DNA of 64,000 nucleotides from a virus (Duplodnaviria; Caudoviricetes): IMG/VR virus record IMGVR_UViG_3300042554_001750. One strand, 5' to 3'. This document shows, one piece after another, positions 10,489 through 54,400 of the stretch. The notes below the pieces were generated by a model. It worked only from the letters and a program-made list of their open reading frames with translations, was not told the DNA's origin and searched no databases. A program made the translations under genes and the position numbers. Each line of letters begins with the position of its first letter. Within the stretch, counting starts at the first letter, position 1.

Positions 10489-10532
10489 GTATTAGTAAAT
10501 GTAGATTTTTATATGATCATGACCATCAGTTT

Positions 10533-10560
10533 AAAAAAAGGAGGCTTAAGCCCCCTTTTT
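10533..10560 (-). terminator. rho-independent terminator after the tmRNA coding piece
   Basis: AAAAAGGGGGC-TTAA-GCCTCCTTTTTTT. Confidence 0.8.
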
Positions 10561-10721
10561 GGTTAGTTTGGTAACAAGGTCTTTCCTACCCCGTCTCAAG
10601 CTCAAGCGGCTAGAGCAAATACCTCATCGTTTGCAGGTATAAGTTTTGCTTGATTTACGGTCATCGCCTACCGTGCTGTCCACTCTGTTACTCTTTGCCC
10701 TGTCGAAACCATGACTGGCCC
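10561..10721 (-). ncRNA. ssrA: tmRNA coding piece (permuted, two-piece tmRNA); tag ANDEVFALAA at 10634-10602
   Basis: Begins GGGCCAGTCATGGTTTCGACAGGG; pk1-like CACGGTAGGCGATGACCGT; resume codon GCA and tag ANDEVFALAA-TGA; 3' end approximate. Confidence 0.9.
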
Positions 10722-10722
10722 A

Positions 10723-10797
10723 TCATAAAAGGACTATAGCAAAAACTACTAAAACTACAGTTATACCAAACAACCATTTTACTACTTCGTCGTTCAT
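10723..10797 (-). CDS. 24-aa hydrophobic peptide inside the tmRNA intervening segment
   Basis: AAAGGGA then ATG: MNDEVVKWLFGITVVLVVFAIVLL*; fills the spacer and stops 1 nt before tmRNA G1. Confidence 0.5.
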   Translation of the reverse strand: MNDEVVKWLFGITVVLVVFAIVLL

Positions 10798-10809
10798 ATA
10801 ATCCCTTTA

Positions 10810-10872
10810 TGGTGGACCAGGCGGGAGTCGAACCCGCGTCCAGAACACTTTTCTCTTTGCTTCATACAGCAA
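10810..10872 (-). ncRNA. ssrA: tmRNA acceptor piece (T-arm, acceptor strand, encoded CCA)
   Basis: GCGGG-TTCGACT-CCCGC T-arm then CTGGTCC-A-CCA; pairs with GGGCCAG giving G3:U70; TGTTCTG pairs with CAGGGCA; 5' end approximate. Confidence 0.9.
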
Positions 10873-10886
10873 TAATCTTTATGTTA

Positions 10887-13800
10887 TCATGACTTGTATT
10901 TATTTGTAAAGTACTGATTTAACCATTCCCATTCGTATGTTAATTTCAATTTGGCAAAATCGTCTTTATTGTTTTCATAATACTCATAAGCATCATTTGC
11001 ACCCATTAATGCATACTCACTAAAGTCACCCTCAGCCTTTGCTAACCAAGTATGCAAACGTGTTTGACTCATATAGTCTTGCTCATCATTACACAGTTTA
11101 ATTACTTCTCTGAATGCAGTTCTCCAAGTGCTATATGGGTCTGTATTGAACATTGCAGTTCCCGAATTGATTTCTACTACTTCATGGTTGTCATCAAGTG
11201 TAAAGTCTAATCCTTTACCGGTGTTATTCAATGTCATTATCTTGTTATAGGCAATCATAGCTTGGTGACCATATACTAACCCGTTCACAGGATTAGTAGC
11301 GTGAAAAATATAATGCTTTGACTTTTGAAGCCTGTCAGGTTGCCAGTTCCAATCAAAATTGTCGTCTACTTTTAACTTAGCAAATACCGTAAAGAACCAC
11401 GGCGTAGTGCTTACATTTGCTGCGGCATGGTACGCATTTACTCTTCCATTTACCCCATCAACGCGGACAACTTTGTTCTTTTTACCTTTGGTTACTTTTA
11501 ATAGATGTTCGTAGTTTTCTTCTGCGTTACTTTCACCATTGCTTAAAAATACAATGTCTAACGGATTGCTTTGTAATGGCTTGTAAGATTTTTTAATATA
11601 GGGATAATCATATAATTCTTCTTTTACATATTTTATAGCATCTTTAGGAACTATTATTCTTGTTCCACCTGTAGTAGTTACTAGAATAGTTTTAGAACTT
11701 TCAGACCATAAACTAATAGGTTTCTCATCCTTGATATTAATATTTCTATGGTCGTTAGTTTTAAAAACTGCATAAGGGAACTTAAAGTTTTTATCTATAG
11801 ATCCAACATGACTGTCACTAGTAATAAATTCAGGCGGATTGATTCTAGTGACTGATTGATGCTCATTGAAATTGATACTTGGATAATTTTCTAATGAAGA
11901 AATGTCATTTATGAACTTGCGCAATAATTCAACATTTACTAAAAAGGTATCACCATATTTTTGTCTGTCACTAGGAAACACATGCAATTGTTCCTGCGCA
12001 AAGGGATCGCAAATATAACTGAAATCAAATTTATCGTAATGACATATTGAATTACATACCCAAATAAACTGATCCTTTTTATCTTCTAACAGATTAAGAA
12101 TCTTTTCAAATGTTTTATGATAGGTGTCTACAAAATCAATAGTATGTAATTTTCTATTCCCAATTTTTTCTGTAATGTCGTATATGATATCAACCGATTC
12201 GTAGTTTCCGTGATCTATCAAATATACATCATATAGACAATCAGTAGCCTTTGCTCTTTTACTTTTTACTAAGTTTATAGTATTGAGGTGCTCAATAACT
12301 TTAACATACTTGGTATCTTCTAAAAAGGTTTCTGAATTAATGACATAAGTATTTCCCCAATGATTCCATTGAGTACCAAACACATGAATCATTTTGATTT
12401 GCCATGGACTTGGATAAAAATCAAAAGTAAAATCAGAATAATCTAATTCGCTATTCAATACCCAAAATAATTTTGTTTCTGTTTTGCGAATGCATCTTGC
12501 GATTGTTTCAACCCAGTTGTTGAAGAATCTTGTTTTTTGAAGCTTGGGATATAACTCTTTAAGTTTATTGAAACGAATATTACTTTCTAGGTTACCTTTA
12601 TCAATAAAAAACATACTCAAATTAGTATCTGTTTGAACTTGATGTTCTTCAACATAGTTATATTCTTTATAGCCCAACAAATACAACGGAGCATTGATGT
12701 AGTAGGTTTGTGTGTTCTTACTATATTCATTACCGAACACATTTATGTGTCTAAAGTTTTGTTCAGTTGGCCTCCAACTAAAATCAAACTTATCATAGTT
12801 TAAATCAGGGTTTAGTGCCCAAAATACTTCTTCAGGATGTTGATTAATCAAATCTTCTAATGTAGTCGTAATATAATATTTGTTTACTGTTGTCTTTTTA
12901 CTTTCATTAGAACGTTCCATCAATACAACTTCCGTAGCACCAGGCACTGTGTATCTAGGGCCATTGTTAGCCCACTGATATATTTGAGGCGGACTATGAG
13001 GATTAGGTCTCCATGTAAAATCAAATGTTTCTAAATCATCAGTATTGTTAACGCTCCACAAATTTAGTTGTGCAGCAGGAACAGCTACCGGTTCTAACAT
13101 ATATTTTTTATCTGTTGCTCCCTCTACATGATATTCAACAGTGGGTTCAGTAGATGCATCATTCCATTTATTACCAAACACATATATGTAGGGAGGTGAC
13201 TTGGGATCAGGTCTCCAACTAAAATCAAAACTTTCAATTGGTAGTAATTTTTTCCAATGATTTTCTGTCGCAGTAGATTTTACTAATGCTTTGATGTTAT
13301 CAATGTATGTGTATTCTGTAGCTCCGGGACAATGATACTCAACAGTTGGTTCTTGAAGTGCATCATTCCATTGATTACCAAACACATAGATATAAGGAGG
13401 ACTATGTGGATTAGGTCTCCAGCTATAATCAAAACTTTCTATGTCTATTAATGTTTTCCAATACTGTTGTGTTTTACTAACTTTAGCAATTATGTTAGTA
13501 ATATACTTTTTGTCAGTGGCCCCATGAACTGTGTACAGTACCGTAGGCTCAGTCATAGCATCGTGCCATTGATTGCCAAACACATAGATATAAGGAGGAC
13601 TGCCGGGTTCGGGTCTCCAACTAAAATCAAAATCTTCTACTGGAATCAACACACTCCAATTATCCATGTCGGGCAATGTTTTCGCAAATCTGTCATTCAT
13701 GTATTTGCGTTCAGATGCCCCTTCACAGTGATATTCAATAGTTGGTTCTGTTTCAGCATTGTTACTTTGATTACCCCATACATAGATATATGCTGGTTCT

Positions 13801-16544
13801 CTTGGGTCAGGTCTCCATGTGAAATCAAAACTATCTTTGTCTATAGGTATAAGAATATTATATCTATCATATTCGGGTAGAACGTCAGTATTGCCCATGT
13901 ACTTAATTTCTGTGGCGCCATCACAATGATATTCAATTGTAGATTTTAGTTCACCGGGTATCCACTTGTTACCCCACACATAGATGTATGCTGGCTCTCT
14001 TGGGTCTGGCCGCCAAGTAAAGTCAAAGTTTGTTACCTTTTGTACTTCCTTCCATCTATCATATTCGGGCAATATATCAACAGGTTCTTGAATATATTTG
14101 TACTCAGTAGCCCCTTCCATGTGATATTCTAATGTGGATTTAAGTTCAGGTCTTATCCACTTGTTGCCCCAGACATAGATATATGCAGGTTCTCTTGGAT
14201 CTGGTCTCCAACTTAAATCAAATTTTGCTTTATCAATTGGTTGAATTTCTTTCCACTTAGACAGTTCAGGTAACACTTCAATATCACCCATATACTTTCT
14301 TTCAGTGGCATTTGGCGCTTTATATTCTAAAGTAGGTTTCAATTCAGCCTTGATCCATTTATTTCCCCATGTGTAAATATACGCAGGCTCTCTTGGATCT
14401 GGTCTCCAAGCAAAATCAAATTTAGATTTATCTATTTGCTGATGTTCAACCCAACGGTCATGTTCGGGCAATACTTCAACATTTCCCATATATTTGTATT
14501 CAGTTGCACCGGGGGTGTGATATTCAACAGTAGGTCGTAATTCTCCCGGTATATATTTGTTACCCCATACGTAAATATACGGGGGACTAGTAGGATTGGG
14601 TCTCCAACTAAAGTCAAATTTTTCTTTGTCAATTTGTTGATGTATTTCCCACTTATCTAGCTCGGGTAATACTTCAACATTGCCCATATACTTGCGTTCA
14701 GTTGCTCCATCTACATAATATTCAAGTGTTGGGTGAACCTCAGCCGGCACGTGCTTATTACCCCATGTGTAAATGTAAGCAGGTTCTCTTGGATCTGGTA
14801 TCCAAGTAAAATCAAAATTTTGTATGGATGCATGTATTTTATAGTTGTCCCAATTTGGTAATACTGGAACCTCTCCCATGTATTTTCTATCTGTCGCACC
14901 GGGCACAACATATTCAAGCGTAGGTTTTAATTCAGCAGAAACATACTTATTCCCCCAAGTATAGATATATGCTGGTTCTCTTGGATCGGGGCGCCATGCC
15001 ATGTCAAACTGTGTTTTATCAACTGGAATGTGCATTATCCATTTTTCAAGTTCCGGGACAACATCAACATCTCCCATGTACTTTCTTTCTGTAGCACCTT
15101 CTACATAATATTCTATTGTAGGCTGTATTTCCCCGGGTATATATTTGTTACCCCAAACATAGACATAAGCGGGTTCACGAGGATCTGGTCTCCAGGCTAG
15201 ATCAAAATTAGTTACTAAATGATGTATTTTCCATTTGTCTGTTTCCGGGAGAACCTCAACATCTCCCATGTACTTTCGTTCAGTAGCCCCGGGGGTGTGA
15301 TATTCTAGGGTTGGTTTTATTTCTCCAGGTATATATTTATTACCCCAGACATAAACATAAGCAGGTTCTCTTGGGTCAGGTCGCCATGTCAAATCAAAGG
15401 TGTTCTTTTGATATACGATCCATTTATTATATTCAGGCACAACCTCAACATCTCCCATGTACTTTCGTTCAGTAGCGCCAGGAGTGTGGTATTCTAGAGT
15501 TGGTGATATTTCAGCAGATACAAACTTATTCCCCCAAGTATAGATATATGCTGGTTCTCTTGGATCAGGCCTCCAAGTAAAGTCAAAATTTTTAACTTCA
15601 CTGTATATTTTCCATAACTCAGTTTGGGGCAAGACCGGGGCAGGATCATTCATGTATTTTTTATCTATTGCACCATCTACATGATATTCAATGGTTGAAT
15701 GAAGTTCAGCGGGAACCCACTTATTACCCCATACATAAATGTATGCAGGACTCGTTGGATCAGGTATCCAACTAAAGTCAAATAAATCTAGATTTATTGG
15801 ATCATTGATTACCCACTTGTCATATTTGGGAATCAATCTAACCGTGTCTGACATATATTTTTTTTCTGTCGCACCGGGTGCACGGTACTCTACTGTAGGA
15901 GATATCGCCCCGGAAACCCATTTGTTACCCCATACATAGATATAAGGAGGTTCATGCTCGTCTGGCATCCAAGTAAAGTCAAACAGTTTCTCATCTATTG
16001 GTTTATGAATCACCCAATTATCCCAATCAGGGACTGCTGTTGCTAATTGCGTGTCCACAAATTTAATAACGGTTGCGCCGGGTACAATATATCTAGGTCC
16101 ACCTGTTTTGCGCCACTGAGAACTAAACTGATAGATAAAAGGAGGATCAGTTGTATCAGGATGCCAGCTAAAATCAAACAACTTTTCATCTATAGGATAT
16201 GGAATTACCCAGTTATCAGATTTTAATTTTGTTCTTTTAACACAATCAACATCATTTCTATAAATGATACAGGGATTTTGATTGTCTGTATTAACTAACC
16301 AAGTCCCGCTATCTTTCTGATGCTGGCTGGGCCAAACATTGATATGATCTTCTGCCCACACATCTTCGTCAGGTAGAAAATCAAAATCAAAATCCCAATC
16401 AAAATTGCGATAATCACTAAACTCGTTGATTATCCAAAAATGTTCTGTAGTAGATTGGTTTCTAGCATCTGCTAAATCTTTAGCAAACTTTTCTCTAGGA
16501 TGGACGTTTGGTTTTTTACCGTAATAAAATACATCTCTCAGCAT
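10887..16544 (-). CDS. 1885-aa protein: tandem ~60-aa W/P/Y-rich repeats plus C-terminal glycosyltransferase-like domain
   Basis: ORF track; C-terminal DIVFLS..E..AEENY, RVDGVNGR..AY.AAA, NPVNGLVYGH, WRTAFREV resembles ORF 33284-34243. Confidence 0.75.
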   Translation of the reverse strand: MLRDVFYYGKKPNVHPREKFAKDLADARNQSTTEHFWIINEFSDYRNFDWDFDFDFLPDEDVWAEDHINVWPSQHQKDSGTWLVNTDNQNPCIIYRNDVDCVKRTKLKSDNWVIPYPIDEKLFDFSWHPDTTDPPFIYQFSSQWRKTGGPRYIVPGATVIKFVDTQLATAVPDWDNWVIHKPIDEKLFDFTWMPDEHEPPYIYVWGNKWVSGAISPTVEYRAPGATEKKYMSDTVRLIPKYDKWVINDPINLDLFDFSWIPDPTSPAYIYVWGNKWVPAELHSTIEYHVDGAIDKKYMNDPAPVLPQTELWKIYSEVKNFDFTWRPDPREPAYIYTWGNKFVSAEISPTLEYHTPGATERKYMGDVEVVPEYNKWIVYQKNTFDLTWRPDPREPAYVYVWGNKYIPGEIKPTLEYHTPGATERKYMGDVEVLPETDKWKIHHLVTNFDLAWRPDPREPAYVYVWGNKYIPGEIQPTIEYYVEGATERKYMGDVDVVPELEKWIMHIPVDKTQFDMAWRPDPREPAYIYTWGNKYVSAELKPTLEYVVPGATDRKYMGEVPVLPNWDNYKIHASIQNFDFTWIPDPREPAYIYTWGNKHVPAEVHPTLEYYVDGATERKYMGNVEVLPELDKWEIHQQIDKEKFDFSWRPNPTSPPYIYVWGNKYIPGELRPTVEYHTPGATEYKYMGNVEVLPEHDRWVEHQQIDKSKFDFAWRPDPREPAYIYTWGNKWIKAELKPTLEYKAPNATERKYMGDIEVLPELSKWKEIQPIDKAKFDLSWRPDPREPAYIYVWGNKWIRPELKSTLEYHMEGATEYKYIQEPVDILPEYDRWKEVQKVTNFDFTWRPDPREPAYIYVWGNKWIPGELKSTIEYHCDGATEIKYMGNTDVLPEYDRYNILIPIDKDSFDFTWRPDPREPAYIYVWGNQSNNAETEPTIEYHCEGASERKYMNDRFAKTLPDMDNWSVLIPVEDFDFSWRPEPGSPPYIYVFGNQWHDAMTEPTVLYTVHGATDKKYITNIIAKVSKTQQYWKTLIDIESFDYSWRPNPHSPPYIYVFGNQWNDALQEPTVEYHCPGATEYTYIDNIKALVKSTATENHWKKLLPIESFDFSWRPDPKSPPYIYVFGNKWNDASTEPTVEYHVEGATDKKYMLEPVAVPAAQLNLWSVNNTDDLETFDFTWRPNPHSPPQIYQWANNGPRYTVPGATEVVLMERSNESKKTTVNKYYITTTLEDLINQHPEEVFWALNPDLNYDKFDFSWRPTEQNFRHINVFGNEYSKNTQTYYINAPLYLLGYKEYNYVEEHQVQTDTNLSMFFIDKGNLESNIRFNKLKELYPKLQKTRFFNNWVETIARCIRKTETKLFWVLNSELDYSDFTFDFYPSPWQIKMIHVFGTQWNHWGNTYVINSETFLEDTKYVKVIEHLNTINLVKSKRAKATDCLYDVYLIDHGNYESVDIIYDITEKIGNRKLHTIDFVDTYHKTFEKILNLLEDKKDQFIWVCNSICHYDKFDFSYICDPFAQEQLHVFPSDRQKYGDTFLVNVELLRKFINDISSLENYPSINFNEHQSVTRINPPEFITSDSHVGSIDKNFKFPYAVFKTNDHRNINIKDEKPISLWSESSKTILVTTTGGTRIIVPKDAIKYVKEELYDYPYIKKSYKPLQSNPLDIVFLSNGESNAEENYEHLLKVTKGKKNKVVRVDGVNGRVNAYHAAANVSTTPWFFTVFAKLKVDDNFDWNWQPDRLQKSKHYIFHATNPVNGLVYGHQAMIAYNKIMTLNNTGKGLDFTLDDNHEVVEINSGTAMFNTDPYSTWRTAFREVIKLCNDEQDYMSQTRLHTWLAKAEGDFSEYALMGANDAYEYYENNKDDFAKLKLTYEWEWLNQYFTNKYKS
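10897..10903 (-). promoter_or_regulatory. ATAAATA late-promoter variant upstream of the tmRNA
   Basis: Motif in the last codons of the 1885-aa gene, about 25-30 nt upstream of the acceptor piece. Confidence 0.35.
12935..16210 (-). repeat. coding tandem repeat, 17 copies of a ~180-nt unit
   Basis: Unit FDF(S/T)WRPDPREPAYIYVWGNK....(P)TLEYH.PGATE.KYM counted 17 times; 3-4 more degenerate copies downstream. Confidence 0.9.
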
Positions 16545-39487: not shown

Positions 39488-42400
39488 TCAAGTTTGGTCT
39501 TGGTTTAAGAAAATTGCACTTGCAGTTGTGCTTATCTGTAATGGATCGCCCAATGTTGTATTAAAGGTATAACTATTCCAAGTCTGGTTATACTGTATGT
39601 TTGTCATACGGTTATTAGACAAATAGCTGTATACCTCAGAGTATTTAGGAATAATTACCTGTTCTCCGGTACCATTAGCACCGCGTTGCAAGTTATATAA
39701 CGCATTTAACGCTATTACTGTCCCTGATCCAGGAATAATGGTATTGTTATTGGTCGCAGTAAATGTGACCCCAACAGTATTTGAGCTAGCCCCATATAGT
39801 GTAAAATCGGTAGATCCTACTGTTTCTATTGTATATTTTTGACCATATACAATTTCACCTGCAGTGATCACCGGATTAACAGTTCTAAATCTAATTTGCT
39901 CACCATTGATAGATACCAAATTACCTTCTAGAACCACAATCGTTAAACTATCCCCTGCGGTTATGTAATTTCCCTGATTAATTCTCAATATCGGAGACAA
40001 TTCTTCAACGACAATTTCATAATTTGAGCTTCCAATGAGTTGTGATGTTGTATTATTGTAGACTGAAATTCCTGTAATAATTCTCTTATCTGCGGTCAAT
40101 CCAATATCATAAACACCATTCAATAATGAAGGAGTTGTAACATTTTGAATTACATTATCGGTCAAATGAACAATATCGTTTACATATATAATGTTATCTG
40201 TATTGTAAAGATCCTGTGTCATCCAAGTTCTAGATAATGAGTTAGCACGATACACAGTTGCTTCATTTACTGAATTTACAGTCAATACATAAACTTCTTC
40301 GTTCGGTGTTGCGCTTGGCATCATACTTGTAATAATCACAACATCGGTAGTAATTATTGTTTCTAAGATGCTAATCTGATTACCAGCATTGATGCGCAAG
40401 CTTGATGACGGTACTCTGTAGCCGTTGACAGTTACCCAAAGTCTATCTACATTTACTTGTTCCCATTGAGAAATAGTAATAGTGTTAGGTGCTGCAGTAC
40501 CACTTGTTAAAGTCTTAACTGTACCATCATATGTTTCACTTATAGTGATATTGTTACTTGCTCTGGTCTTAATATAATAAACAGTTCCTGTAACCAAACC
40601 ACCAATGATAGTTGTACCAAGTGGATCACCAATCTGAGTAAATACTATTGGTGTTCCTGCAACTAAACTAGAACCATCGGCTACAGTAATTATATTTCCA
40701 GTTGAACTGGTCGATGTTACTGTGCTAGTCTGCAATGTAAATGTGTCAGAAACCCATACATATCCAGCACCAGTGTAAGCAGTAATCTGAGTTATTGGGC
40801 TGTTGACAGCATTAAATGCAGGATCGTATTCAGTTTGATAAATCCAGAATGATGTATCATTAATAACCTGAACATAATATAGATTGTTGTTTAACTGCGT
40901 AGAACCAGTCGTGCCGTCAATTCTAACTATATCGTTTGTAACAAAGTTATGATTTATTCCTGTTGTTATTCTTACTGCAGGATTTCCACCAACAATTACA
41001 TTCATCGTACCTACAGCGTCTGATACCGGGACTAGTGTTCCAGTACTGTCTTTAATAGTAAATTCGGTTAGACTATCAACACTTCTTACAAAATATACAG
41101 TACCATCTGTTAATACTCCACCAAAGCTAGTACCTTGGAATATTACTATATCATTAACAGTGAAATTAGTTGTACTAATCACAGTTATATAATCTGTCGC
41201 CGAAGTTGTTGCTGTTGCTTGAGTAGATGCAGAAGGTGAAGAAATATTATTGTTAATAGAAACAATATTTGCTACAGTTTCACCAGTAATACCGAATTGA
41301 CTATTCAAATACTGTCTACTTGTATCATTAAAAGTAGTGACAGCAATGTTATCATTTAAAGAAGGAATAGTAGTAAAGGTAATTGTCTCGGCACTAGAGT
41401 TGATAGTGTAGTCCGTATTATCAAGACGCAATCCATTTATTTCCACTACTGCATTTGCTGCATTGTTCAAGTCAACAAAGTTGGTTAAGTTAAATGTACT
41501 TGTAACTCCATCACCAACAAACATTTGAAGTTCAGGTATAGAATATCCATATTGTTGAGGGTTAGTTTCTCCAAACAATGTATAACTTAAGAAGTCAATA
41601 CCATTTACATATGGGGCGCTAAAAATAATCTTAGCTTGAATTCCGTTTGGCTGTAATCCAAACGCATAATCACGGGTTATTAGTTGAGCACCACCAGTAT
41701 CTGTTGTTAGAGCAATAGCAGGACCACCTTGAGTTAAACTAATTGTAAACTCATTGTTGTCTACAATAGATTCAATATAGTAAGTTGTTAAGGGTTGAAT
41801 TACTCCACCAAAAATTGTATTACTGAATACAATCTTATCTCCAACTACCATAGCACTTGTTGTGTTGCAAGTAACTGTATTGGTTGCCCCGTTAGTTTTT
41901 GTAACAGTCCCTGTTGTTCCATGTACTAACTTTGTACCATTATGATAGATTAAAGGATCTGTCCAAGTAACACCTGATCCAACCTGTATAATAGCATACA
42001 TGGACCCTGTGTCATCTGTTACGGCAAATGTTGGTCCGGCTACGCCAGTAGATAAGTCAATACTAGTAGAAACTGTAATGCTTGAACTTGCCAAACTTAT
42101 TGTTTTTACATAATAATTTGTATCCTCTAATAGTCCACCAAAAGTAATACCTTGGAATCTAATTGGATCGTTCAAGTTAAATTCTCGTACACTTTCGCAT
42201 ACAATAGAATTTGATAGACTTATTGTTTCAGTAGCTTGAACCGAAACTGGATTAGTATTGGGTTGAATTACCCCACTGCCATTAAAAGAAGGTGCAGAGT
42301 AATTACAATTTACAAATATCTCATTAAATCCAGTAGTTTCATTGTATCTGATAGGATCAGTCTGTGTATCAGCCTTTACTAACTGATTACCGTTGCCTGT

Positions 42401-45400
42401 TTCGTATATATCTACACGCAATGAATCTGTAATTGGACTGAATGGGAGTGCGTTGTTCAGAGTAATGATAGAATCAATCCAATTAACGGTATAATCAATA
42501 GTTTCATATAAGCGGGTAGACAATCCTGTTACTCCACTAGTTTGATATACACTTATTTGTGCGGGTGTTTGAGCAACATTATGGAATACATATTCAGTTT
42601 GAAGTTCAAATGAAGGAGTCAATTCTAACGATATTACATTAAATCCAACATGTTGATATTCTGTTGCTTCCCAAGTTGTGCCGGGCCGGGTAGCAACAGT
42701 CATCATTAATGTGTCCGTAACTACACCAGGTACTAGTTCTTCTGGTCCATAACCATCAGTAAATTCACCACCTTGAATATCGTAAGTTGATTCCAACTGA
42801 ATAATGATGGCATCGTCTACCCAAGTTACGCCGCCGTCATAACTAATTAGTGCTGTATTGTTTTCACCAACAACTAATATTCTTCCATTGGTTTCATCAA
42901 CTGCAATACCTTTTAAATTGTTAGTTGTATTAGAAACTTGAGTTGTCCATGTGGCAAAGTCAGTACTTGTTACGATAGTACCATTATTTCCAACTGCTAT
43001 TAAAGTTTCAAAAGTGGCTGTTCCAGTTCCCGATCCTGTGCCCAAAGCCACAAAGATTGTACCCGGGTTATTATTTGCAGCACCAAGTGAAATAAAGTCT
43101 GTAGTACCTGCGGTTTCAATAATATAAACTTGTCCAATGATAAAGTTACCAGCAGTAATAATAGAAGAAACAAATTTAACATCATTAAGTGTTTCTTCAT
43201 CTGCTACTGTAACTGTAGTCAAGAATACAGGAGATGCGGTAGTTAATGCTACAGTAGGTATTAATGATGAGGCAGAACTTAAAACAATTGTATTATCGCC
43301 CGTGTCAACTGACTTGACCCAATAATTTGTGCCAGTAGTTATACCACCAAAGCTAGAGCCGGTGAATTTTACTTTTTGTCCCACTGTAAATGTAGTTCCT
43401 GGAACAATTTGAACTTTGTTTGTAGTTCCATAAGAGTTTAAAACTACTGCTTCATTTAAACCATTCCAATTATTGCCATCAAATGATTTATAAATTATAC
43501 CATCTTCACCTACTGCAATAATGTTTCCAACACCAGTACTTGTGAAAGTGCCACTGGTAACTGCTCTTAATCCTTTATAATTTATAGGGTTAAACTGTGT
43601 CCAGTTAGAACCATTTAATGCAGCAATAAAAGTGCCTCTTGGATATATATTTCCGCCTATTTGTTGTTCTCCGGATCCTACTGCTATTAGTCCGTTGAAG
43701 CCTGAATTTATATTGACCCCTGTTAAACCATAAACAGTATAACTTAATGAGGGTAAATAATAAGGATTAATTGCTGACCAATTATTTGTATCCGAGCTAA
43801 TTAATATTGCGTTTGTACCGCCAGCTGCATAATAATTTTGACTGCCAGTATTATATACACCGATACTATTAATATTATAGTTTCCTGCAGTACCTTTTAC
43901 AGTCCAAATTTCTCCATCTGTGCTCTTAAATATTGGAGTTGCATAATTTGTAGATGTTACTAAATACTCGCCATCGTGATATAAACTATCTGTAAGATTT
44001 ACATTACTTCCAGCTAACTTAGTAGATATCCAACTATTTGCTTCTGTCGCAATTGCAGAGTAATCAGCGGTATTGAAAGTTACATAGAATTTATCTAAGC
44101 CATATACTGCACTGGTTGAATCTACATCAGTTTGTGTAAAACTGGTTGAAGGTAGTATAACATCTAATGAATATTGATCGTCCGGCGCAAACGCATTACC
44201 CAAATATGTACTGTTTGGGTAAGTAATACCAGTAACTAGCTGAGTTAAATCTAAGCCCGGCATGTTAACAGTAGGTTGATAGTAACCCATAATTCTGTCA
44301 AGCGCATTCAATCTACGGTCACCTGAGTCTAGTAGTTCCCATTTTCCTAAAACAAATTCAGTGTCATTGTTACTTACAACACAAACATATACTTGATTGT
44401 TGAACTTAACAATACTTTGATTGAAGTAGAAGGGTTCCGGAAGTAATGCATAATCTCCTGATTTAGCAACAGTCATGGATCCTGTTGCATCAGCAGAAAC
44501 ATTAAATGTAGTGCCTCCTGGGATCTCTGATACTGTAATTGTAGTAGATGTTGGCTTTGACTTGATATAATAAGTCTGCCCTAAAGTTACTCCACCAAAT
44601 ACAGTGCCGGTAAATACTACAGGGTCATTCAAGTCAAAATCACTAGAACTGGTTACAGTAAATCTATCAGTTGACGCTGTACATGCAGTAACCCCAGTAG
44701 AAGTTATACCATTGTATCCAAATCCTATGCCACTAACTGGAATAGTCATCAATGAGTTAGAGTAAACTTCTAATTCATTTTCACTAATTACCTTTAAGTA
44801 GTAGTCTGATGATGTTGCTGGAATTGTTCCATTTACAATAAATGATGTGACTTCTCCGTTTGCATCAATGCTATTTACAATTAAGTTTACATCATTAGCA
44901 GGAGTTGTTCCACCAAAGTTTGTACCGGGTATGTTGATAGTATTTTCTAATGCATAACCTTCGCCCGCATTGATGATAGTAACTTTATATCCACCTAATA
45001 TCCAGCTTATGTCATAAGTAGCTGAAGTGGTTATTTCTTGTGTCAATGTTACTGTTGCTGTTGCTGTTGCACTAGATAATGATACTTCGGCACCACCAGC
45101 TGAGGTACTTACTGTAATGTATGGTTCTCCAGTACCGGTCATTGAGCCATTCTGAGTAGTCAATGTTACTACAACGCCGCCAGGAAAATCAGTAATTTTG
45201 AAGTGCGTGCTATCTATGATAGATTCAACATAATAAGTTTGATCTATCTGTATTCCACCTAATCCAAATCCAGAGAATGTGATAGGCATATCTACATACA
45301 AGGATTCGGTAGTGTCACATGTTATTTCATTTGTAGATGAACTAGTGCTTGTAGCTGCGATTGATATTACACCAGTGTCTAAAACATAGTATGTTGTACC

Positions 45401-48400
45401 GGTGGTTAATCCGCCTATGTTTGTGTCTATTGTAAATGGCATGTTTACATAAACATTAGTTAATCCGCCGCTACTAGTAGATAACGCTACTCTATTAACA
45501 GTAGTAATAGTCGCACTAATACTTCTTTCAATTAAGTCGTTAGTTGTCTCGCCGGTAAATGGTCCTGAGAATATACCACTAGTTGGGTAAAGAGTGAACT
45601 TTTGACCATTGATTTGCCCTGGACTTACTGGTAGATTGACATTTATTGTCATGTTACCGGTTAAAGTTTCAGTAATTTGTAACACATCTACTTGACTAGT
45701 CAATGTCGCACTTGATGAAGCAGACGCTGTACTTAGTGACAAGATTGCCCCATTAACTTGTGTAGAGATTTGTATTTGATCTAAACCCAATACAGTAGCA
45801 ACATAGTATACAGTACCTGCAACAATGCCACCGACCGATTCGTTGAAAATTATTGGATTGTTAACCTGTAGTTTTGTTGTTTCTTCAGCTAATAAAACAA
45901 TATTTGGACTTTGAGTTCCCTGTACTGATACAATTAACGGGTCAGGATTTCTTGAAACAGTAAATGTTTGTTTGTCACATACCGAAGTAATGTAATATAC
46001 ATCATTTTCTATTACGCCACTGAACACATCACCGGTAAAGAATACTGGTAAACCAGTATAGAATCCTATTGTTCCGCCTGTGCCCAATAATGACAATGGT
46101 GCAGTAATAGTATTGGTTGTTTTATTTGTTGCTGTGCAACTGTAAATTCCGGGATAGTTGATAGTTAAGACAGCAGTATTAACTACTTCTCCTACAAAAC
46201 AATTTAATCCGGCAGCAGAGATAGTTTGATTTCCTAAAGTGTTGTTAATCTTAAACTCTGTAGAACTTACAATTTCTGTAACATAATAAACTTCACCATA
46301 AACTATATTGCTAGCTCCGACTGCCCCGATAAATTTAACAGGCATTCCAATATAGAAACCAATTGTAGTACCTGAGGCGGTATCGCCGATTCCGCCACCT
46401 AGAGGCGCTAAGTCAATAATGTCAGTTCCAGCATGAGTAGCTACAACATTTCTAGCGAGGCTTGAGAATGTAACTTGTTGGTCATTTGTTACGTTTACAA
46501 TTTCAAATGCTACACCTTGCCCGCTAGCTAAAATGCTTTCAATTGGTGGTTGAGTGCTTTGCAATAGTATAGAAGAACTTGAAACAGATTCACTATTATT
46601 ATACTGACCTGCGTAGTATGCACCATAGAAATTGCCAGCTTGCCAATCTATAATCTGCGAATCGTAAGTTGTTCTATCAAACCTCAATGTGATATTATTT
46701 TCACGAACTGGTGAGCTTGTGCCAATAGTATATGCTCTTGCACCTAAGTTTAGATTTTGGTTATTACCTGTTCCAATACCATGTAGAGGTACTCGGTCAT
46801 GATCATTAATAGCATTAGCATAGTTGTTATAAAATGCTATAATAACAGTTGGGTTATTTTCTAAAACATTAACATAATACCATTGGTTGTTGACTAATCC
46901 CGGTATGCGGGTGCTATCAGCTCCGACTACATACTGAACCAGATCTCCTGTTTGTAGTAGAGGTGCATATAATCTAACTGAATCAGTGCTTATGATAACA
47001 TCATCACTAGAGAATGTAATTACAGTTGCAGGCTCAATAATTATTTGAGGGGTTGCTGCATAACCACTGCCTGAATTAATTACATCAATTCTAAGCACTG
47101 AGTCCAATGCCATAACTGCTTGCAATTGCGCAGGAATTACTGGGCCGCTGTACTGAGTAAATAGTACCTCTGTTGTTAATTCTTGCGCTACATTTATTTG
47201 GTATGTGTTAGTTGTTAATTGTGAAACAATTATAGTTTGAGGTATTATGCCTGGTGCGTCTAAGTAATCACCTACATTTACTTGTCCATTGACAATGGTT
47301 GTAATTGTTAATGTGCTTCCTGTTATAGATCCATAATATTCGGCAGTTTTAGTAATCTGCGGATCAACATAAGCTGTAATTTTTGGCGGATTCACATATC
47401 CTCGTCCTGCATCAACTACCACTACAGGAGGCAAATCCATAAATATTTCTTCACCGGGCAAATGTGCAGTAACAGTAGTTTCATTAACGCCGCGTGTTAG
47501 TCCAAGTAAGCTTCCTGTTGCAGAGTCAACACTAGAATAACCGATTTCTTCATTTCCAATTTTTATAACACCATTAATAGGGAAACCATATGCATTGTTC
47601 ACAGTTAAAGAAGTTGAATTCAATGTAACATAGGAAGTTAAACGGGACATTGGATAATTTAATTGTCCAAACAATTGTGTTGAATCACCTTGTTGAACAG
47701 CTTGACCAATTTTAACGCCATAGTTTTGTTTCCATTGCGTATAGTTCGGATTGCTCCAAATACTATTATCAGGAGTAAACTGGTTATCAGTATTTGGATT
47801 TATATACACTAATTCAGGTGTAATAAATTCTCGGCTTGTTGAACTATATTGAGCTGGTAAATCAAAGTCAGTTACATCACCCTCAAATGTGTCAGATCCA
47901 GTATATTCAAATAAGAATTCTTTAATTACCACATGATATGGTTTAACTTCATTTAAGTAGCCTGACAAGAAATCTTGATTGTCACTTTGGAATACTTCAA
48001 TAGGTCTTAATTCACGAATCTTATGTGCAACATCAACAAATGATGTTTTATTCAACCAAGGTAAATAATTTTGATTTTCTATAGTTTCACTTTGAATGTA
48101 TTCAAACAACAGTATTAATGACCTATTTCTATAAATTAATAGTTCATTAGTGTAGATTTGCTCATTCAACGCACGAATAATAAAGCGTGTTTCTTCACTT
48201 GGATACTCATCATAAGGGGTCGTGTCATAGAAATTATCACCAAAACCCAATCTAGCAGATGCATAATCCCATAATGCAGAATTAAATTTAATAGTACCAT
48301 TCTGCAAACCAATTCTTGTCCAACCGGTTACATCTTTGATGTATGTTTCGCTGAAACCACGTGAATTCTGTTTTACAGTAACGATGGTGCCGTTAGGTAC

Positions 48401-51400
48401 AGATAATGTAGACAAGTCTGAGTACAATGGAACTTGTAGTGCAGACTTTGTACTGTCACTATATCCATCTGCCCACCAGTTTGTGAATTCCCAATATCTG
48501 CCATCGCTTACATCATACTTTTCACCTTCTTCAAATAAGACTACAGTAGGATCATTTGGATCATAAATTGTAGGATTCTTTTCATTTAAGAAAGTTATGT
48601 TTTCTCTAATCTCAGCTATCGGGAATTGCGAAAGAATTTCATTTGCATATAGCAAATAATTCTTAAGTGCCATAAAACGGTTTAAGAAGAAACTCTGTCT
48701 AGGACGAGCCAAGATACCTGTTTGAACTGCCTTTGGTAAGTATGGATTAGGAACCACTTGACCGGTTTCGTCAACACCAGATAAGCTGTCTAGCAATCTG
48801 TCATATAAACCTTGAGGATTAACACTAAAATTATAATCGCTGTTTACACTTTGATTGCTTAAGTTAGTAGGTATACCTGGCAAGAAATCATCAGCATAAT
48901 TTGCTCTGATCAAGCTAAACTGATTATGTGCCACATCCTGATTTGTTCCTGTAGCAAATCCAATATGGAACACGCTGTCATTAGCGTTTAGATATTCTTG
49001 GATGTTATACAAGCCAAATGCATTTGGTAACAATGGAACAAAATAGCTGATGCCTGAATCTTCAGGATTAGCAATATAAGACTCTATCACAGAATCTGCT
49101 AAACTCTTTCCAGCTAGTGTATAAACAGTGTTTGTATTTCTGACCCAGTAATAATATGTAGGTATTAAATTGCCCGCATCGTTGAGATTGTAATTAATTA
49201 CAAATTGAGTTATATCAAATGGGGTTCCGGGTCCTGCATAATCTACTGGTAGTTGTGTGCTTTCAACCCAAGTAAACGCTTGAACTGTGCTACCAGGGAA
49301 TAATGTGCCCCAATATTGGCTATTATATACTGCATCATCTTGATGGTAGTTAACGAATCTTAATGTTGAAGTGTTAAGCCAAATCTGTCCAACTTGTACT
49401 GGTCCCCATGTGATGCTAGTTTCTATATTACCCTGATTGTTGTATCTTGCAGGATCATTGTTAGAAACAAAATCAATATTCTGTCTAACAGCACCTAATA
49501 TTTTGCCCTGCAATGGGTCAATGTAATCTAGGTTTACTAAAGTTTCATTAGTTTGGGCGCTGTAAATTTGTGCGTTGTTAATTTTATCAATATCTACTAC
49601 AGCACTTGAACTTCTGTAAACACTCCAATCTTGTTTACCTGTGATGTTGTTATAACCTATGACTTGACCATTATCAAATCCAGGTCTGAATGTTGGGGTG
49701 CCGATTGCAACGGTGTTATCATTGAAATCTAAAGCATGACCGTATAATGGTTGTGCACCAAAATCTAAGTTTCTTGCATTTACGCTTTGAGCATATACAT
49801 ACTTACCTGTATTATTAATACTTTCAGCATAGACAGGCAAATAGTCAAACATGTAGACGGCGCCAGCATTGTCAAATTCTTCTATGAATTGAGTTGTGTT
49901 ATTGTCAAATATGGTATCATTATCAAAGTAATTGTCATCAGAGAAATCAAATGTTGTTTCACTGAATCTAGATCCAGTTGGTGCGCTTGCAACAAAAGAG
50001 CCATTAGATCCAAACTTAACAGTTGATCCAAACTGAGTGGGACCTTCTGTATGTGGGCACTGTATAACTTGTGTTTCTGTAAATAGTGTAATCCCCAACT
50101 CAGCTAGAACTGTATTGTTCATTACACCAAGAGTTAACTGTTGATTGGGCACTGATAAATCGTTATTAATCAATCCGATTATCAGTCTATTATCAGGAGT
50201 TGCTGTTGCAGTAACATTTGTGATATTAGTTTGATTAATGGTACTTGCTACACTAGATGCATTTCCGGGTGTTAATTTAACCAGATATCCGTTGATTAAT
50301 ATATTTGAATTTGTTGTTAATGCTACCGGGTCTGTTCCTATGATGTAACCATAGTTTGATCCACTGTTGGTAAATCTATAAACTGCACCTTCTTGTAATT
50401 GTGTGTTTAGTTGGAACGGAGCTCCAATAATAATTTCATTACCTTTTGTTGCAATATCCAAACTGTGTCCAAATTCTACACCTATTAATGGGGTAGTATC
50501 TGTGCTGAATCTTTGTGTATTAACAAACAATTGACCACTGACTGTAATAATATCACCCGCAGTCAATGATCCATAGTAGTATAAAGTATTATTAATAATT
50601 GCATATTGATTGTCATCAATTAAAGTATTATTAACACTTAAGTATATAGGAGTATTTTGTACGCTTACTGTTGCGTTTACTGAACCTTGTGTTGTAACAG
50701 TAAATGCAGAAAGACTTGCCCTAGATGTTTTGATAGTTATGTCATTGCCAGACTTGCTTGCAATGTAATACACTTGATTAGGACTGATTAAAGTATTTTG
50801 CAGTCCTGCTCCCAAGAATACAATTGGATCGTCAACATTTAATGAGGCTGCACTGGTTGTCAATGTTAGAGTACTTGGTGCAGTTGTAGAAGCCAAAACT
50901 TTACTGACAGTTGTAGGGGTATATGCTAATTCAAATGATTGCGGTATGTCGGGTTGACTGTTATTCTGTACTTCAATTTTTTGAACTATACGGTTGAATG
51001 CATATGCGTAACCATAGTCATCAATAGTTACGCTGTAACTTACATTAGGAGCACTAATAACAATATTTTCGCCAGTGTAATCAGTTGCAATAGCATATCC
51101 AAAGTTGTCGCCAGCAACCAAACCAGATACTGTTACTGTTGTTGCAAATTCATATTCATCAGTAAGTTGTGACTTTCTATATACATGTACCAAATTTGGA
51201 GATACTGTATTGTCAAAGTCACTAATAAAGATCCAATTTTTATCACCTGAAATTGCAACTGCTTGGCCCCAGTTAACTGAATTAGCAGGAGCACTAATAG
51301 GTGTTTGGTATACTACTAAGTCATCAGATGATATAGTTTGATCTAGTCTATAGATGTGTACTTCCTTAGAACCAGTTGGCTCACTTATTACAAAAATATC

Positions 51401-54400
51401 ATCAGCATATTCAATTGTAGTACCAAATGATGTGCCATGGGTGATAGTTTGTATTAATTGCCAATCTTGTAATAATTCATTATAAGTATAACGGTAAACA
51501 GCACCTTCGGCTTCATCTCCGATTAAATATCCTAAATTGGTAGAATACGCAACTGCACTACCGAACGCTTGACCAGTAGGTCTTGTAAATTGCTTTTGAT
51601 AAGTGTAATTAAGGTCTTTTCTAAATACAGCCCAAGAACCATTATTATTTGTATCTACCCAAACTTTATTTTTTTCAAATTCAGTGTTCAGTAATGGTAG
51701 ATTGATAATATCTGCAGGGGTTGCAACTCTTTGTTGCTGAAACTTAAATCCTACACCTTGTCCTGTCAATGTTATAATTGAAGGATCCATTTGTAAATTA
51801 ATAATAATTCTGTATGGATCTACTATAAGAGCAGCGATGTAGTACCCATTAACGGCTGTGTCAAAATTTAATATCGCTAATGGATCGTATTGTGTTAAGT
51901 TATGTTGTTCTTTAAATGTAATTGTTACAGTGCCATTTAGATTATTCAATGCACCAATTACTTGCCCCATGCTTACTGGAGAATAAACATTCCATGTTCC
52001 TAAATAATTTGCAATCCAAACATAATCGCCAACATAGAATCTGTCTAGTGGAACTATCAATCCATTTTTATCAACGGCCGCTGCAATCTGTGACAGATAG
52101 AATGATGACATTTTTACATCATTTAAGTTCACATAACCGGCATCAGGGAATAATGTTGAAGGCTCTTCACTTGGGACAGTAGCTAGAATATTAGGATCAG
52201 TTATTGGTCTATCATAATTATACAGACTGCTTAACGGAACTTCTTGTTGTGAACCTTCTGTATTTGATCCATCAGTTAGTGAAACAATGCTTGGATTTCC
52301 AACAAGACTGTTTTGATTAAGTTTAAAATCTACAAAGTTAGAGTTTAATACTCCACCAAATTCTCCAGACTTAATAGCCCAGTTTTCATAGACTTCATAA
52401 TCAATTCCACCTTGCGGTAAATTAGCTCCCCTAAAGGCACTAACAGCATTAAGTGTACCTTTATTCTTAATCATGTTTTTGTAAACATTGACTTGAGTAA
52501 TGTCAGTCAAGTCTGCAAGTGCAAGGTAATCACGAGGACGATAGCCAATCAAACTAAAACTTAACAGGTCTGCATCTTTTTCTAGATTAGCCCTATCTAC
52601 ATCATAATACAATGTGCTCTCATAACTGCGAGTGCTAGAATTAGATAATAATCCTTTTTGAATTTCACCGTACTCAGTTAATTTCCAATCTAGTTCGTTA
52701 AAAATATTATTAGGTTGAACGACCTTTAAAGCAGTCCAATACTTGTTTTTGTATTTTACAATGCTGCCCTTAGTGTACTTAAATTCTTTACTCCACTCGG
52801 TTATATTGTCTTGATTTAAAATGAAACCGCTAGTGGTTACGGTACCATTCCACTCGGCTGTCTTAGTACCACGACATGTAATTCTTAATTGTCTTAATCC
52901 AGTAATTAGGTTATAAATTACATCATCAAATAATGTTATATTGTCAAATACAATTCCATGTTCAATATTGTTAATATTGAATTGACCATATGCAAGTGTA
53001 TCTCCTGTGTTCTGCGGGACAACATTAAACAATGTTTGGTCTCTTACGATACTCAAGTCTTTAGTTTGTATTGGATATAAATTTTCATTTAAAATGAAAT
53101 TAGATTGTTGGAAAGTCAGTGGCTGAACTACATAACCGTCTTTATTAATTGTTAAACTCTTTGCAGCAGGATTTACTGTAACAATACTGCCTTGTTCCCA
53201 ACCAGTTTGTGCCCAGTATAAGAACTCGGCAACCATTTGTTTCCAATTAACTTCTAAACCGTTTTCAACTTCTTCAAACACCATACCATTGGCTTCTAAA
53301 TAGAAACCATAGTTTATTAAGAACTGTGATACTTCTTGAATAGTATAAAATATAGTGCCGTATGGTACTATAACTTCAGTTTCTGAAGGTTTTGTATATA
53401 CAGTTACTGAGGTGCTTTCTACATTAATAATTTCAGAGTCTACATTTATTCTTGGTGCTAATGTAGTGAAGTATGCCTGTGTCTGAGAATTACCATATAC
53501 GGCATAACCCTCTGGTACTATCTGAATAATAATACCGCTGTAAATTAATTTTGTAAACGGTTGATTTTCATATAGTAATAAAGAATAACTTTCATCAGGT
53601 ATTAACAATGAGGCGTTGCGTGAGTTAGGTGTTCCCTTTTCAACATAGAATTTCAAGAAGGTCTTATCACTAAAGCCCGCCATTCTGTACACTAGACGGA
53701 CATCCAAATTCTGTAGTAATTCTGTAACTTTGGTTGTAGCATCAATACCGATTTGCTTTTGATAATCAACAATCCAGTTAATGTATGATGTTTTGGCAAT
53801 ACCATTGCCATAAATTTGAATATCTGATATAACTAAATGGCTTCTATCGTTTACAAGATATTGATTGAATTCGTAATTATACTTGTAGTTGTCAATGTCG
53901 GCAGCTAAGTTAAAGAACTTAGCAGGCTTCATCAATGCTAAAATTCGCATTAAATCAAATGGATATGAACTGCTTCTACGGTAGCTCAACTCAACAGGAG
54001 AATCATCGCCGACTTTCCAATCTCTTTGGAAAAGATTAGGATTATAATTGCCTACAACAGATGCAAAGGGAGATAGTAAATTACCAGCACTATTAACTGG
54101 AAGCACTTCTAGTAATCCAGGTCTAATAGCTTGTTCTATAACTACTGGGTTACCGTTGTTATAGTCAATACCATTTTCTAAATCTTCCCACAACACCAAG
54201 TTGTCACTAGTATATGGTGCAGGACCATATCTATCTTCCCACCATGCTGGCTTGTTTGTGTAACCAATCATTTCCCATGGCGTTAAATTGGGAGTTGTAG
54301 TATCATAAAAATATTGGTATATACCTCTCCAATACCCTTGTTCTATGGGCTGTCCATTTAACTTGTTACCACTGTCGGTATAGTTATATGTATATTGGTC

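Follow-up and report, generated by a model that had tools for sequence, protein, structure and literature searches.

A predicted membrane-peptide gene under purifying selection in the spacer of a circularly permuted phage tmRNA gene

The window analyzed in this study is a 64,000-nt stretch of phage DNA, part of an 89-kb IMG/VR viral contig estimated by CheckV to be approximately 17% complete; DNA of the window is present in lake-water metagenomes, and loci used for comparison are designated by L-numbers (such as L051 and L126). The neighboring genes are those expected of a large T4-like phage, encoding a baseplate wedge protein, a PstS-like phosphate-transporter subunit, a carbamoyltransferase, and radical-SAM proteins; very large ORFs are also among them, and almost all genes lie on the minus strand. 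Two giant ORFs were observed in the window, both on the minus strand, at 39488-58984 (6498 aa) and 10887-16544 (1885 aa). The 1885-aa ORF, which is essentially without a PHROG match, ends 15 nt before the tmRNA unit.

Both ARAGORN and Rfam identified one circularly permuted tmRNA in the window, on the minus strand. The permuted ARAGORN call (10511-10902) predicted the tag ANDEVFALAA. The beta_tmRNA model RF01850 scored 138 bits against a gathering threshold of 84, with the full model covered (positions 1-331), and the tmRNA_permuted model RF04321 scored 137.1 bits against a threshold of 47, again over the full model. The 3' half with its CCA precedes G1, and the G3-U70 pair and the tag frame are present, as expected for a permuted tmRNA; when read from the sequence, GGGCCAG pairs with CUGGUCC-A-CCA. 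By homology, the tmRNA of the window would be processed into two pieces with removal of the spacer (PMC11915505). The parts of the gene are listed in Table 1. The candidate promoter agrees with the consensus at 9 of 12 positions, and such sites are no commoner than in shuffled sequences; in related tmRNA units, TTGACA, TATAAT, and TAAATA are strongly enriched by position just upstream of the acceptor piece. The terminator hairpin was missed by a simple terminator scan. No SmpB gene was found on the 89-kb contig, which represents approximately 17% of the estimated genome.

Table 1. Parts of the permuted tmRNA gene and their positions in the window.
Feature	Positions	Strand	Evidence or remark
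Whole permuted two-piece tmRNA gene	10534..10922	-	Rfam RF01850, ARAGORN
Gene order: promoter region, acceptor piece, spacer, coding piece, terminator hairpin	10922-10534	-	
Candidate promoter TTTACA-18-(TG)TAACAT	10881..10910	-	Consensus scan, weak; inside the 3'-terminal part of the 1885-aa gene upstream
Acceptor piece: T-arm, 3' acceptor strand CUGGUCC, discriminator A, encoded CCA (10812-10810)	10810..10871	-	RF04321 alignment and sequence
Spacer (intervening segment), 88 nt	10722..10809	-	Not part of the mature two-piece tmRNA, judged by homology
SD-like AAAGGGA, 4 nt before ATG	10802..10808	-	Sequence and leaders of 38 relatives
24-codon ORF with TGA	10723..10797	-	Frame conservation, pN/pS, codon-position U, alignment
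Closing stem, 5' strand, over the SD and first base of ATG	10797..10811	-	MFE fold, 27 relatives
Closing stem, 3' strand, which also encodes residues 20-24 and enters the stop codon	10724..10738	-	MFE fold, 27 relatives
Coding piece, 5' part: G1 (10721), G3-U70, tag frame ANDEVFALAA* (10634-10602)	10602..10721	-	ARAGORN, Rfam, sequence
Terminal GC hairpin and U-run, forming an intrinsic terminator	10533..10560	-	beta_tmRNA model alignment and sequence

The initial annotation of this DNA had described an 88-nt spacer holding an SD-like AAAGGGA and a TM-like ORF whose stop ends 1 nt before G1, and this layout proved exact: the CCA ends at 10810, the ATG begins at 10797, the TGA occupies 10725-10723, and a single U(-1) at 10722 separates it from G1 at 10721. 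The encoded peptide, MNDEVVKWLFGITVVLVVFAIVLL, comprises an acidic N-terminus, Gly11, and a 17-residue hydrophobic tail that reaches the C-terminus. The mean Kyte-Doolittle value of residues 8-24 is 2.98, and this figure, together with the 81% U at the second codon position in the relatives, reveals a continuous and conserved hydrophobic stretch of sufficient length to cross or anchor in a membrane. The product is therefore most likely a single-pass membrane peptide, as predicted from its composition.

We searched for known relatives of the peptide. Pfam returned no match at E<=10, NCBIfam yielded only noise (E 0.35-0.9), and PHROGs gave nothing credible; membership in a known toxin family (Hok, Ldr, Ibs, ShoB, TisB, Fst, and others) was accordingly found with neither Pfam nor NCBIfam. 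A tblastn search of isolated phages with the peptide, conducted with the low-complexity filter on, produced no match, and the tmRNAs of cultured Menderavirus and of Xanthomonas phage X1 have ORF-less spacers. Contigs from four metatranscriptome runs matched only conserved mature parts of the tmRNA, from relatives with other spacers. One RNA-library contig (run X19) spans window positions 10675-10725 and 10810-10874 across a different 79-nt spacer, and represents either the unprocessed precursor of a relative or contaminating DNA.

Shuffling of the spacer mononucleotides yielded a complete ATG-initiated ORF of at least 20 codons in 4% of the shuffles, and in 0.8% one that also had an SD. A single-sequence ORF is thus within chance, and the case for a gene rests on comparison. 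A structural pattern scan of viral contigs (T-arm, CCA, spacer, G1) identified at least 120 permuted tmRNAs whose spacers measure 61-90 nt, and a spacer homologous to that of the window occurred in 10 of the matches listed. After two targeted scans of IMG/VR, the homologous set comprised at least 38 loci, corresponding to 27 unique nucleotide sequences and 26 unique peptides. All 38 spacers possess an SD (AAGGAG or AAAGGGA) 4-7 nt before the start, with the AAGGAG of the relatives at 6-7 nt, and all 38 carry a 22-24-codon frame ending at the same TGA; L126, the apparent exception, has the start codon TTG. A metagenome scan added four unique spacer variants, each of 24 codons, three of which are window-like and one of which (L324) combines a window-type SD with a subfamily B-type peptide. 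Among the matches listed, an ORF of at least 20 codons was present in none of the 92 unique non-family spacers of 61-90 nt.

The initial annotation had also proposed that homologous spacers be compared for ORF conservation and selection, and the comparison bore out a selected coding frame. Frame 0 is open in all 27 unique sequences, and stops occur in frame +1 in 27 of 27 and in frame +2 in 20 of 27. Length differences among the related spacers amount to whole codons, and none of the 38 loci has lost the frame, at nucleotide identities as low as approximately 45%. The pN/pS ratio was 0.20 in subfamily B and 0.32 in subfamily C, compared with 0.7-7.8 in shifted frames of the same alignments; without the six stem-paired 3' codons, the ratios were 0.23 and 0.30, respectively. 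Subfamily A, to which the window belongs, gave 0.41-0.49 with few variants and is not clearly apart from frame +1, and subfamily D is saturated, with a ratio near 1. Because pS reaches approximately 0.5 in subfamily B, the homologous spacers are not near-clonal copies. In the hydrophobic part, U accounts for 22%, 81%, and 36% of codon positions 1, 2, and 3, a 3-nt periodicity that fits NUN codons and would not be expected from an RNA-structural constraint. Gly11 is invariant in the peptide alignment and the acidic N-terminus nearly so. On this comparative evidence, the spacer ORF is a conserved peptide gene under purifying selection, encoding a single-TM-like peptide.

One further homologue was observed in a bacterial data set. 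The sole match among 185,579 species genomes was L151 (CAZCDW010000126.1), a contig of 7.6 kb from a MAG that bears the label Bifidobacterium; it carries the subfamily-B spacer ORF MDDLSSLGIGVIVVLVVFALVLL and may be a mis-binned phage contig.

We also examined 171 viral permuted tmRNAs with 91-150-nt spacers among the matches listed. An SD with an ORF starting approximately 11 nt into the spacer was present in 26 of 88 unique spacers of 91-120 nt and in 14 of 32 unique spacers of 121-150 nt. These ORFs belong to many unrelated families and are hydrophobic in 39 of the 47 cases that end within the spacer; many stop at the same -1 position, and others run into the mature tmRNA. An ORF for a 4-Cys mini-protein (MKYTALCP.CF...KHKCF..) was observed in the 101-nt spacers of L152, L157, L159, L160, L185, L224, and others. 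It starts 11 nt into the spacer and passes G1 into the mature tmRNA, so that RNase P cleavage would remove its stop codon. The 80-nt spacer of L111 holds a non-hydrophobic 15-codon ORF, MSVEEYWKWIHDNVQ, with a good SD and no relatives in the sample. At L046:6779-7016, a tRNA-Asn(GTT) exactly fills the interval between a ...TCCACCA end and a GGG...TGGTTTCGAC start, and a tRNA-Thr lies shortly upstream. The arrangement can be read in two ways, as a tmRNA whose spacer holds a tRNA or as a tmRNA adjoining a cluster of tRNAs.

The claim that the spacer flanks extend the acceptor stem and loop out the ORF was upheld by structure prediction. In the MFE fold of the precursor (-61.4 kcal/mol, z -4.1), the 8-bp acceptor helix is followed by one C/A mismatch and a 15-bp extension (10811-10797 with 10738-10724), which buries the SD and the A of the ATG in the predicted precursor. 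RNAalifold recovered the same closing stem from 27 relatives, with compensatory pairs 34-119, 44-110, and 45-109, and detected no conserved pairing inside the ORF and no alternative hairpins; the closing stem was thus recovered alone, and the conserved alternative hairpins of an attenuation leader were not found among these relatives. The 3' strand of the stem also constitutes codons 20-24, and these positions are therefore constrained both as RNA and as protein, the C-terminal residues of the peptide being partly dictated by the RNA stem. In the nascent RNA, before the 3' stem strand, the sequence is predicted to be unstructured (z -0.5) with the SD region unpaired, and the excised 88-nt spacer is predicted to form a closed hairpin (z -3.1).

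ORF-less spacers share this architecture, usually with a cleaner stem of 12-16 bp of the type AAAGCATATT...AATATGCTTTTGAT. The AAAG after the CCA and the U(G/A)AU before G1 are general spacer features, found in ORF-less spacers as well. The stop position 1 nt before G1, to which the initial annotation had drawn attention, is correct, and it follows from the conserved U(G/A)AU, which supplies the last stop available in frame; it is not special to this gene, since the same motif occurs in ORF-less spacers. A markedly weaker closing stem in ORF-bearing spacers was considered and rejected, the difference in medians (-13.7 versus -15.8 kcal/mol) being small; the closing stem of the window is strong, at -18.1 kcal/mol.

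A resemblance between the start of the peptide (NDEV) and the tag (ANDEV) had been noted earlier as a possible echo, and this suggestion did not survive comparison. The tags of the 38 relatives range from short AND(E/S)x(F/Y)ALAA forms to approximately 27 residues and do not track the peptide: L051 has a peptide identical to that of the window with the tag ANDSSYALAA, and L123 has the tag ANDEVYALAA with a peptide (MMNPAY...) of unrelated N-terminus. Judged from this lack of co-variation, the echo is a coincidence of two short acidic motifs. Unusually long tags of approximately 27 residues (ANADTFDFSAMSFTGN.VSGKSKVALAA) were observed in L016, L048, L124, L125, L128, and others. Tag type and spacer type are shuffled against each other across loci, a pattern in the sequences that suggests modular recombination within the tmRNA gene.

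In a tree of the mature tmRNA parts, which is based on a short alignment, the ORF-bearing genes are scattered. A single origin found no support on this tree, which requires approximately 20 changes, of which at least eight are forced by well-supported branches, again with the short alignment in mind. Because the alignment is short, we compared pairs of loci directly. L095, which has no spacer ORF, and L136, which has one, are 95-100% identical in their mature parts and 84% identical in upstream DNA, and their spacers are unrelated. Conversely, the spacers of the window and L146 are 97% identical with flanks of only 78-83% identity. L016 and L048 have mature parts that are 99-100% identical and spacers of different peptide subfamilies. 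Near-identical backbones with unrelated spacers, and the converse, indicate that the spacer is exchanged as a cassette, and the near-invariant tRNA-like halves beside it would serve as recombination arms.

To locate further family members, we compared a profile of 25 spacer peptides with all 83,402 small ORFs in the 2.83 Mb of collected sequence. The profile matched 50 ORFs: 41 in spacers and nine located 125-250 nt upstream of a tmRNA T-arm. Among the 83,402 small ORFs, no match lay away from a tmRNA unit. The nine leader copies are free-standing ORFs in the tmRNA 5' leader, such as MNDDLTRFLVGFLIVAAVLFIILL in L278 and MDDDLTRFVIGF... in L224. The initial annotation had offered cargo inserted at a tRNA-like site as an alternative, and this idea gains support from the swapping of spacers between backbones and from the presence of the peptide family in tmRNA 5' leaders.

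The leader copies were observed at L224:12930-13020, L278, L067:7478-7550, L282, L285, L233, L310, L318, and L319; that of L278 lies on the minus strand approximately 250 nt upstream of its tmRNA T-arm. They follow the pattern M[ND]DDLTRF.IGF...LL, and the spacers of those units hold another ORF or none. In L224 and L278, the sequence TTGACA-17-TTAAAT directly precedes the ATG, an arrangement that would leave almost no leader. A second leader family of 22 residues (MKAYQFIVAVLIVIFVLVHVFM and variants), located no more than 100 nt upstream of the acceptor piece, was found in L095, L167, L218, L286, and approximately 10 other loci, and it resembles spacer subfamily D (MKPYEVIVITLLTILILVHVFF in L126). 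Further types seemingly common to leader and spacer are ...YDWTKF..., MTWQEK..., and ...LEVWC.VYG.L. Judged by eye, at least five peptide families appear to be common to the two sites.

TM-like small ORFs occur in 18% of leaders compared with 6% of control windows, a three-fold enrichment. In unbiased scans, 161 of 227 unique units (71%) have no TM-like ORF in either leader or spacer, and such an ORF at one site neither favors nor disfavors one at the other (odds ratio 0.98). On both counts, an obligatory partnership between peptide and tmRNA was rejected. As judged from their distribution, the peptides are portable genes, accessory yet tied specifically to the transcription unit of the tmRNA.

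Taken together, we consider it probable that the spacer holds a selected membrane-peptide gene that is exchangeable between tmRNA backbones, driven by the tmRNA promoter, and active as an accessory phage factor. The peptide gene would hitch-hike on the tmRNA promoter. Both the folded precursor and the excised spacer would lock the SD in the closing stem, and translation would occur mostly on the nascent transcript, during the window of approximately 75 nt before the 3' stem strand is made. Ribosomes that initiate or terminate on the ORF would occupy the acceptor strands on the CCA side and the G1 side, so that translation and tRNA-like folding would exclude each other on each molecule, and each transcript would support no more than about one round of peptide synthesis. 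In the predicted precursor of the window, the whole of the SD is paired, which counts against efficient translation. After processing, the spacer would be a closed hairpin with the stop codon 1 nt from its 3' end, probably silent or short-lived. The tRNA-like halves may act as recombination arms through which small genes move in and out, and the product would be a membrane-anchored accessory phage factor rather than an obligatory tmRNA partner.

Several other readings of the ORF were weighed against this one. It could be no gene at all, the frame having arisen by chance in a T-rich spacer between an SD-like purine-rich stem strand and the conserved UGAU. The rate of long ORFs among shuffled spacers and the generality of the AAAG and U(G/A)AU flanks agree with that reading, which leaves unexplained a frame kept in all 38 spacers despite low identity, with whole-codon length changes and the other frames closed. 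It also leaves unexplained why no such ORF appears in the 92 non-family spacers of similar length among the matches listed, and why homologues exist outside the spacer context. On these comparisons, a chance frame is strongly disfavoured, and we consider it very improbable. A type I toxin-like function, in which a membrane-damaging peptide serves host shut-off, exclusion, or lysis timing and the closing stem provides a hok-like fold-back inhibition that keeps translation very low, seems to us rather unlikely. The peptide is of a size and composition that we take to be akin to those of the Ibs, ShoB, and TisB class, and the gene is a phage gene on a probably strong promoter; nevertheless, it matches no toxin family in Pfam or NCBIfam. 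The closing stem, moreover, is general in ORF-less spacers, which indicates that the stem did not evolve to repress the spacer ORF.

The ORF might alternatively act in cis, ribosome passage melting the closing stem and thereby timing or gating precursor processing, with the peptide as a by-product that is hydrophobic because of the U-rich sequence. The SD and stop do lie inside the closing stem beside the CCA end and G1, which would make translation and tRNA-like folding mutually exclusive, and the ORF consists mainly of Val, Leu, and Ile codons, a feature also of some attenuator leader peptides. Such a role would not account for the purifying selection on the amino acids (pN/pS 0.2-0.3 in subfamilies B and C), the U periodicity, and the invariant glycine, nor for the retention of the same peptide family in the 5' leader, where the closing stem is out of reach. 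Most related tmRNAs, furthermore, have ORF-less spacers and presumably mature without translation, and no alternative conserved hairpins are predicted; we regard a cis-acting role as unlikely. Equally unlikely, in our assessment, is that peptide output is wired to trans-translation, with release-factor termination and tmRNA-SmpB entry competing on the peptide-coding RNA. If such wiring existed, 3' trimming would turn the peptide-coding RNA into a non-stop message, and accumulation of the peptide would be limited to times at which the tmRNA of the phage or the host is saturated, or to synthesis from nascent precursors. The spacer gene would then serve as an internal reporter of ribosome-rescue capacity, or as a feedback element acting on it, and not as a passenger. 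Because 71% of the tmRNA units lack a peptide, no link to tmRNA function is needed. The portable accessory gene described above is the reading that we prefer.

Such a gene would carry several implications. The coding and RNA constraints overlap, with the SD and the last five codons forming the processing stem. Families of small membrane peptides that reside on tmRNA units and swap backbones would make conserved RNA genes landing pads for small genes. The spacer-gene system would be approachable with short synthetic constructs.

Phage-borne two-piece tmRNA genes in aquatic environments have been published, for example, that of the OM43 phage Melnitz (PMC9004378). According to a 2025 tmRNA database, mature tmRNA lacks the intervening sequence, and the only elements reported there within such sequences are a tRNA-Ala and a repetitive element (PMC11915505). 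The gene in the window shares with beta-type two-piece tmRNAs the order of acceptor piece, intervening sequence, and coding piece, as well as the G3-U70 pair, the encoded CCA, and a tag ending in ALAA. It differs from the published examples in that their intervening sequence is treated as discarded, whereas the spacer here contains a conserved protein gene; full-text literature searches returned no account of a tmRNA spacer that encodes a protein. ORFs as short as 24 codons are generally passed over by gene callers. With spacers annotated as discarded RNA and short ORFs skipped, a class of phage small proteins would have gone unannotated.

A partial analogue is the 428-nt intervening sequence with an S23p ORF in helix 45 of the 23S rRNA of Coxiella burnetii, an ORF regarded in that study as probably not expressed (PMC4990558). 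Both are stem-closed, ORF-bearing segments removed from the precursor of a stable RNA (PMC4990558). The spacer peptide differs in having no S23p similarity (no Pfam match), in being under purifying selection, and in being a predicted membrane peptide; it is an analogue rather than a member. Group I introns, some with homing-endonuclease genes, occur in the T-loop of tmRNA genes (PMC11915505). Like the spacer, they are removable inserts able to carry a protein gene; unlike it, they are self-splicing with re-ligation of the exons, whereas the spacer has no ribozyme or ligation and its cargo is a 24-residue peptide. Type I toxin mRNAs such as hok/sok are inhibited by 5'-3' fold-back, and very small hydrophobic toxins include Ibs, ShoB, and TisB. 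The spacer peptide has no sequence relationship with these toxins, and the stem here belongs to the architecture of the tmRNA precursor. Dual-function small RNAs, including RNAIII/delta-haemolysin, SgrS/SgrT, and SR1/SR1P, combine a functional RNA with a tiny peptide, in some cases membrane-active, in one transcript, and the tmRNA precursor of the window would do likewise. In dual-function RNAs, the coding part stays in the functional RNA, whereas the spacer ORF lies in the part that is excised, and in the tmRNA precursor translation and RNA folding would be mutually exclusive. A selected peptide gene in the excised part of a stable-RNA precursor would represent a new layout among dual-function RNAs.
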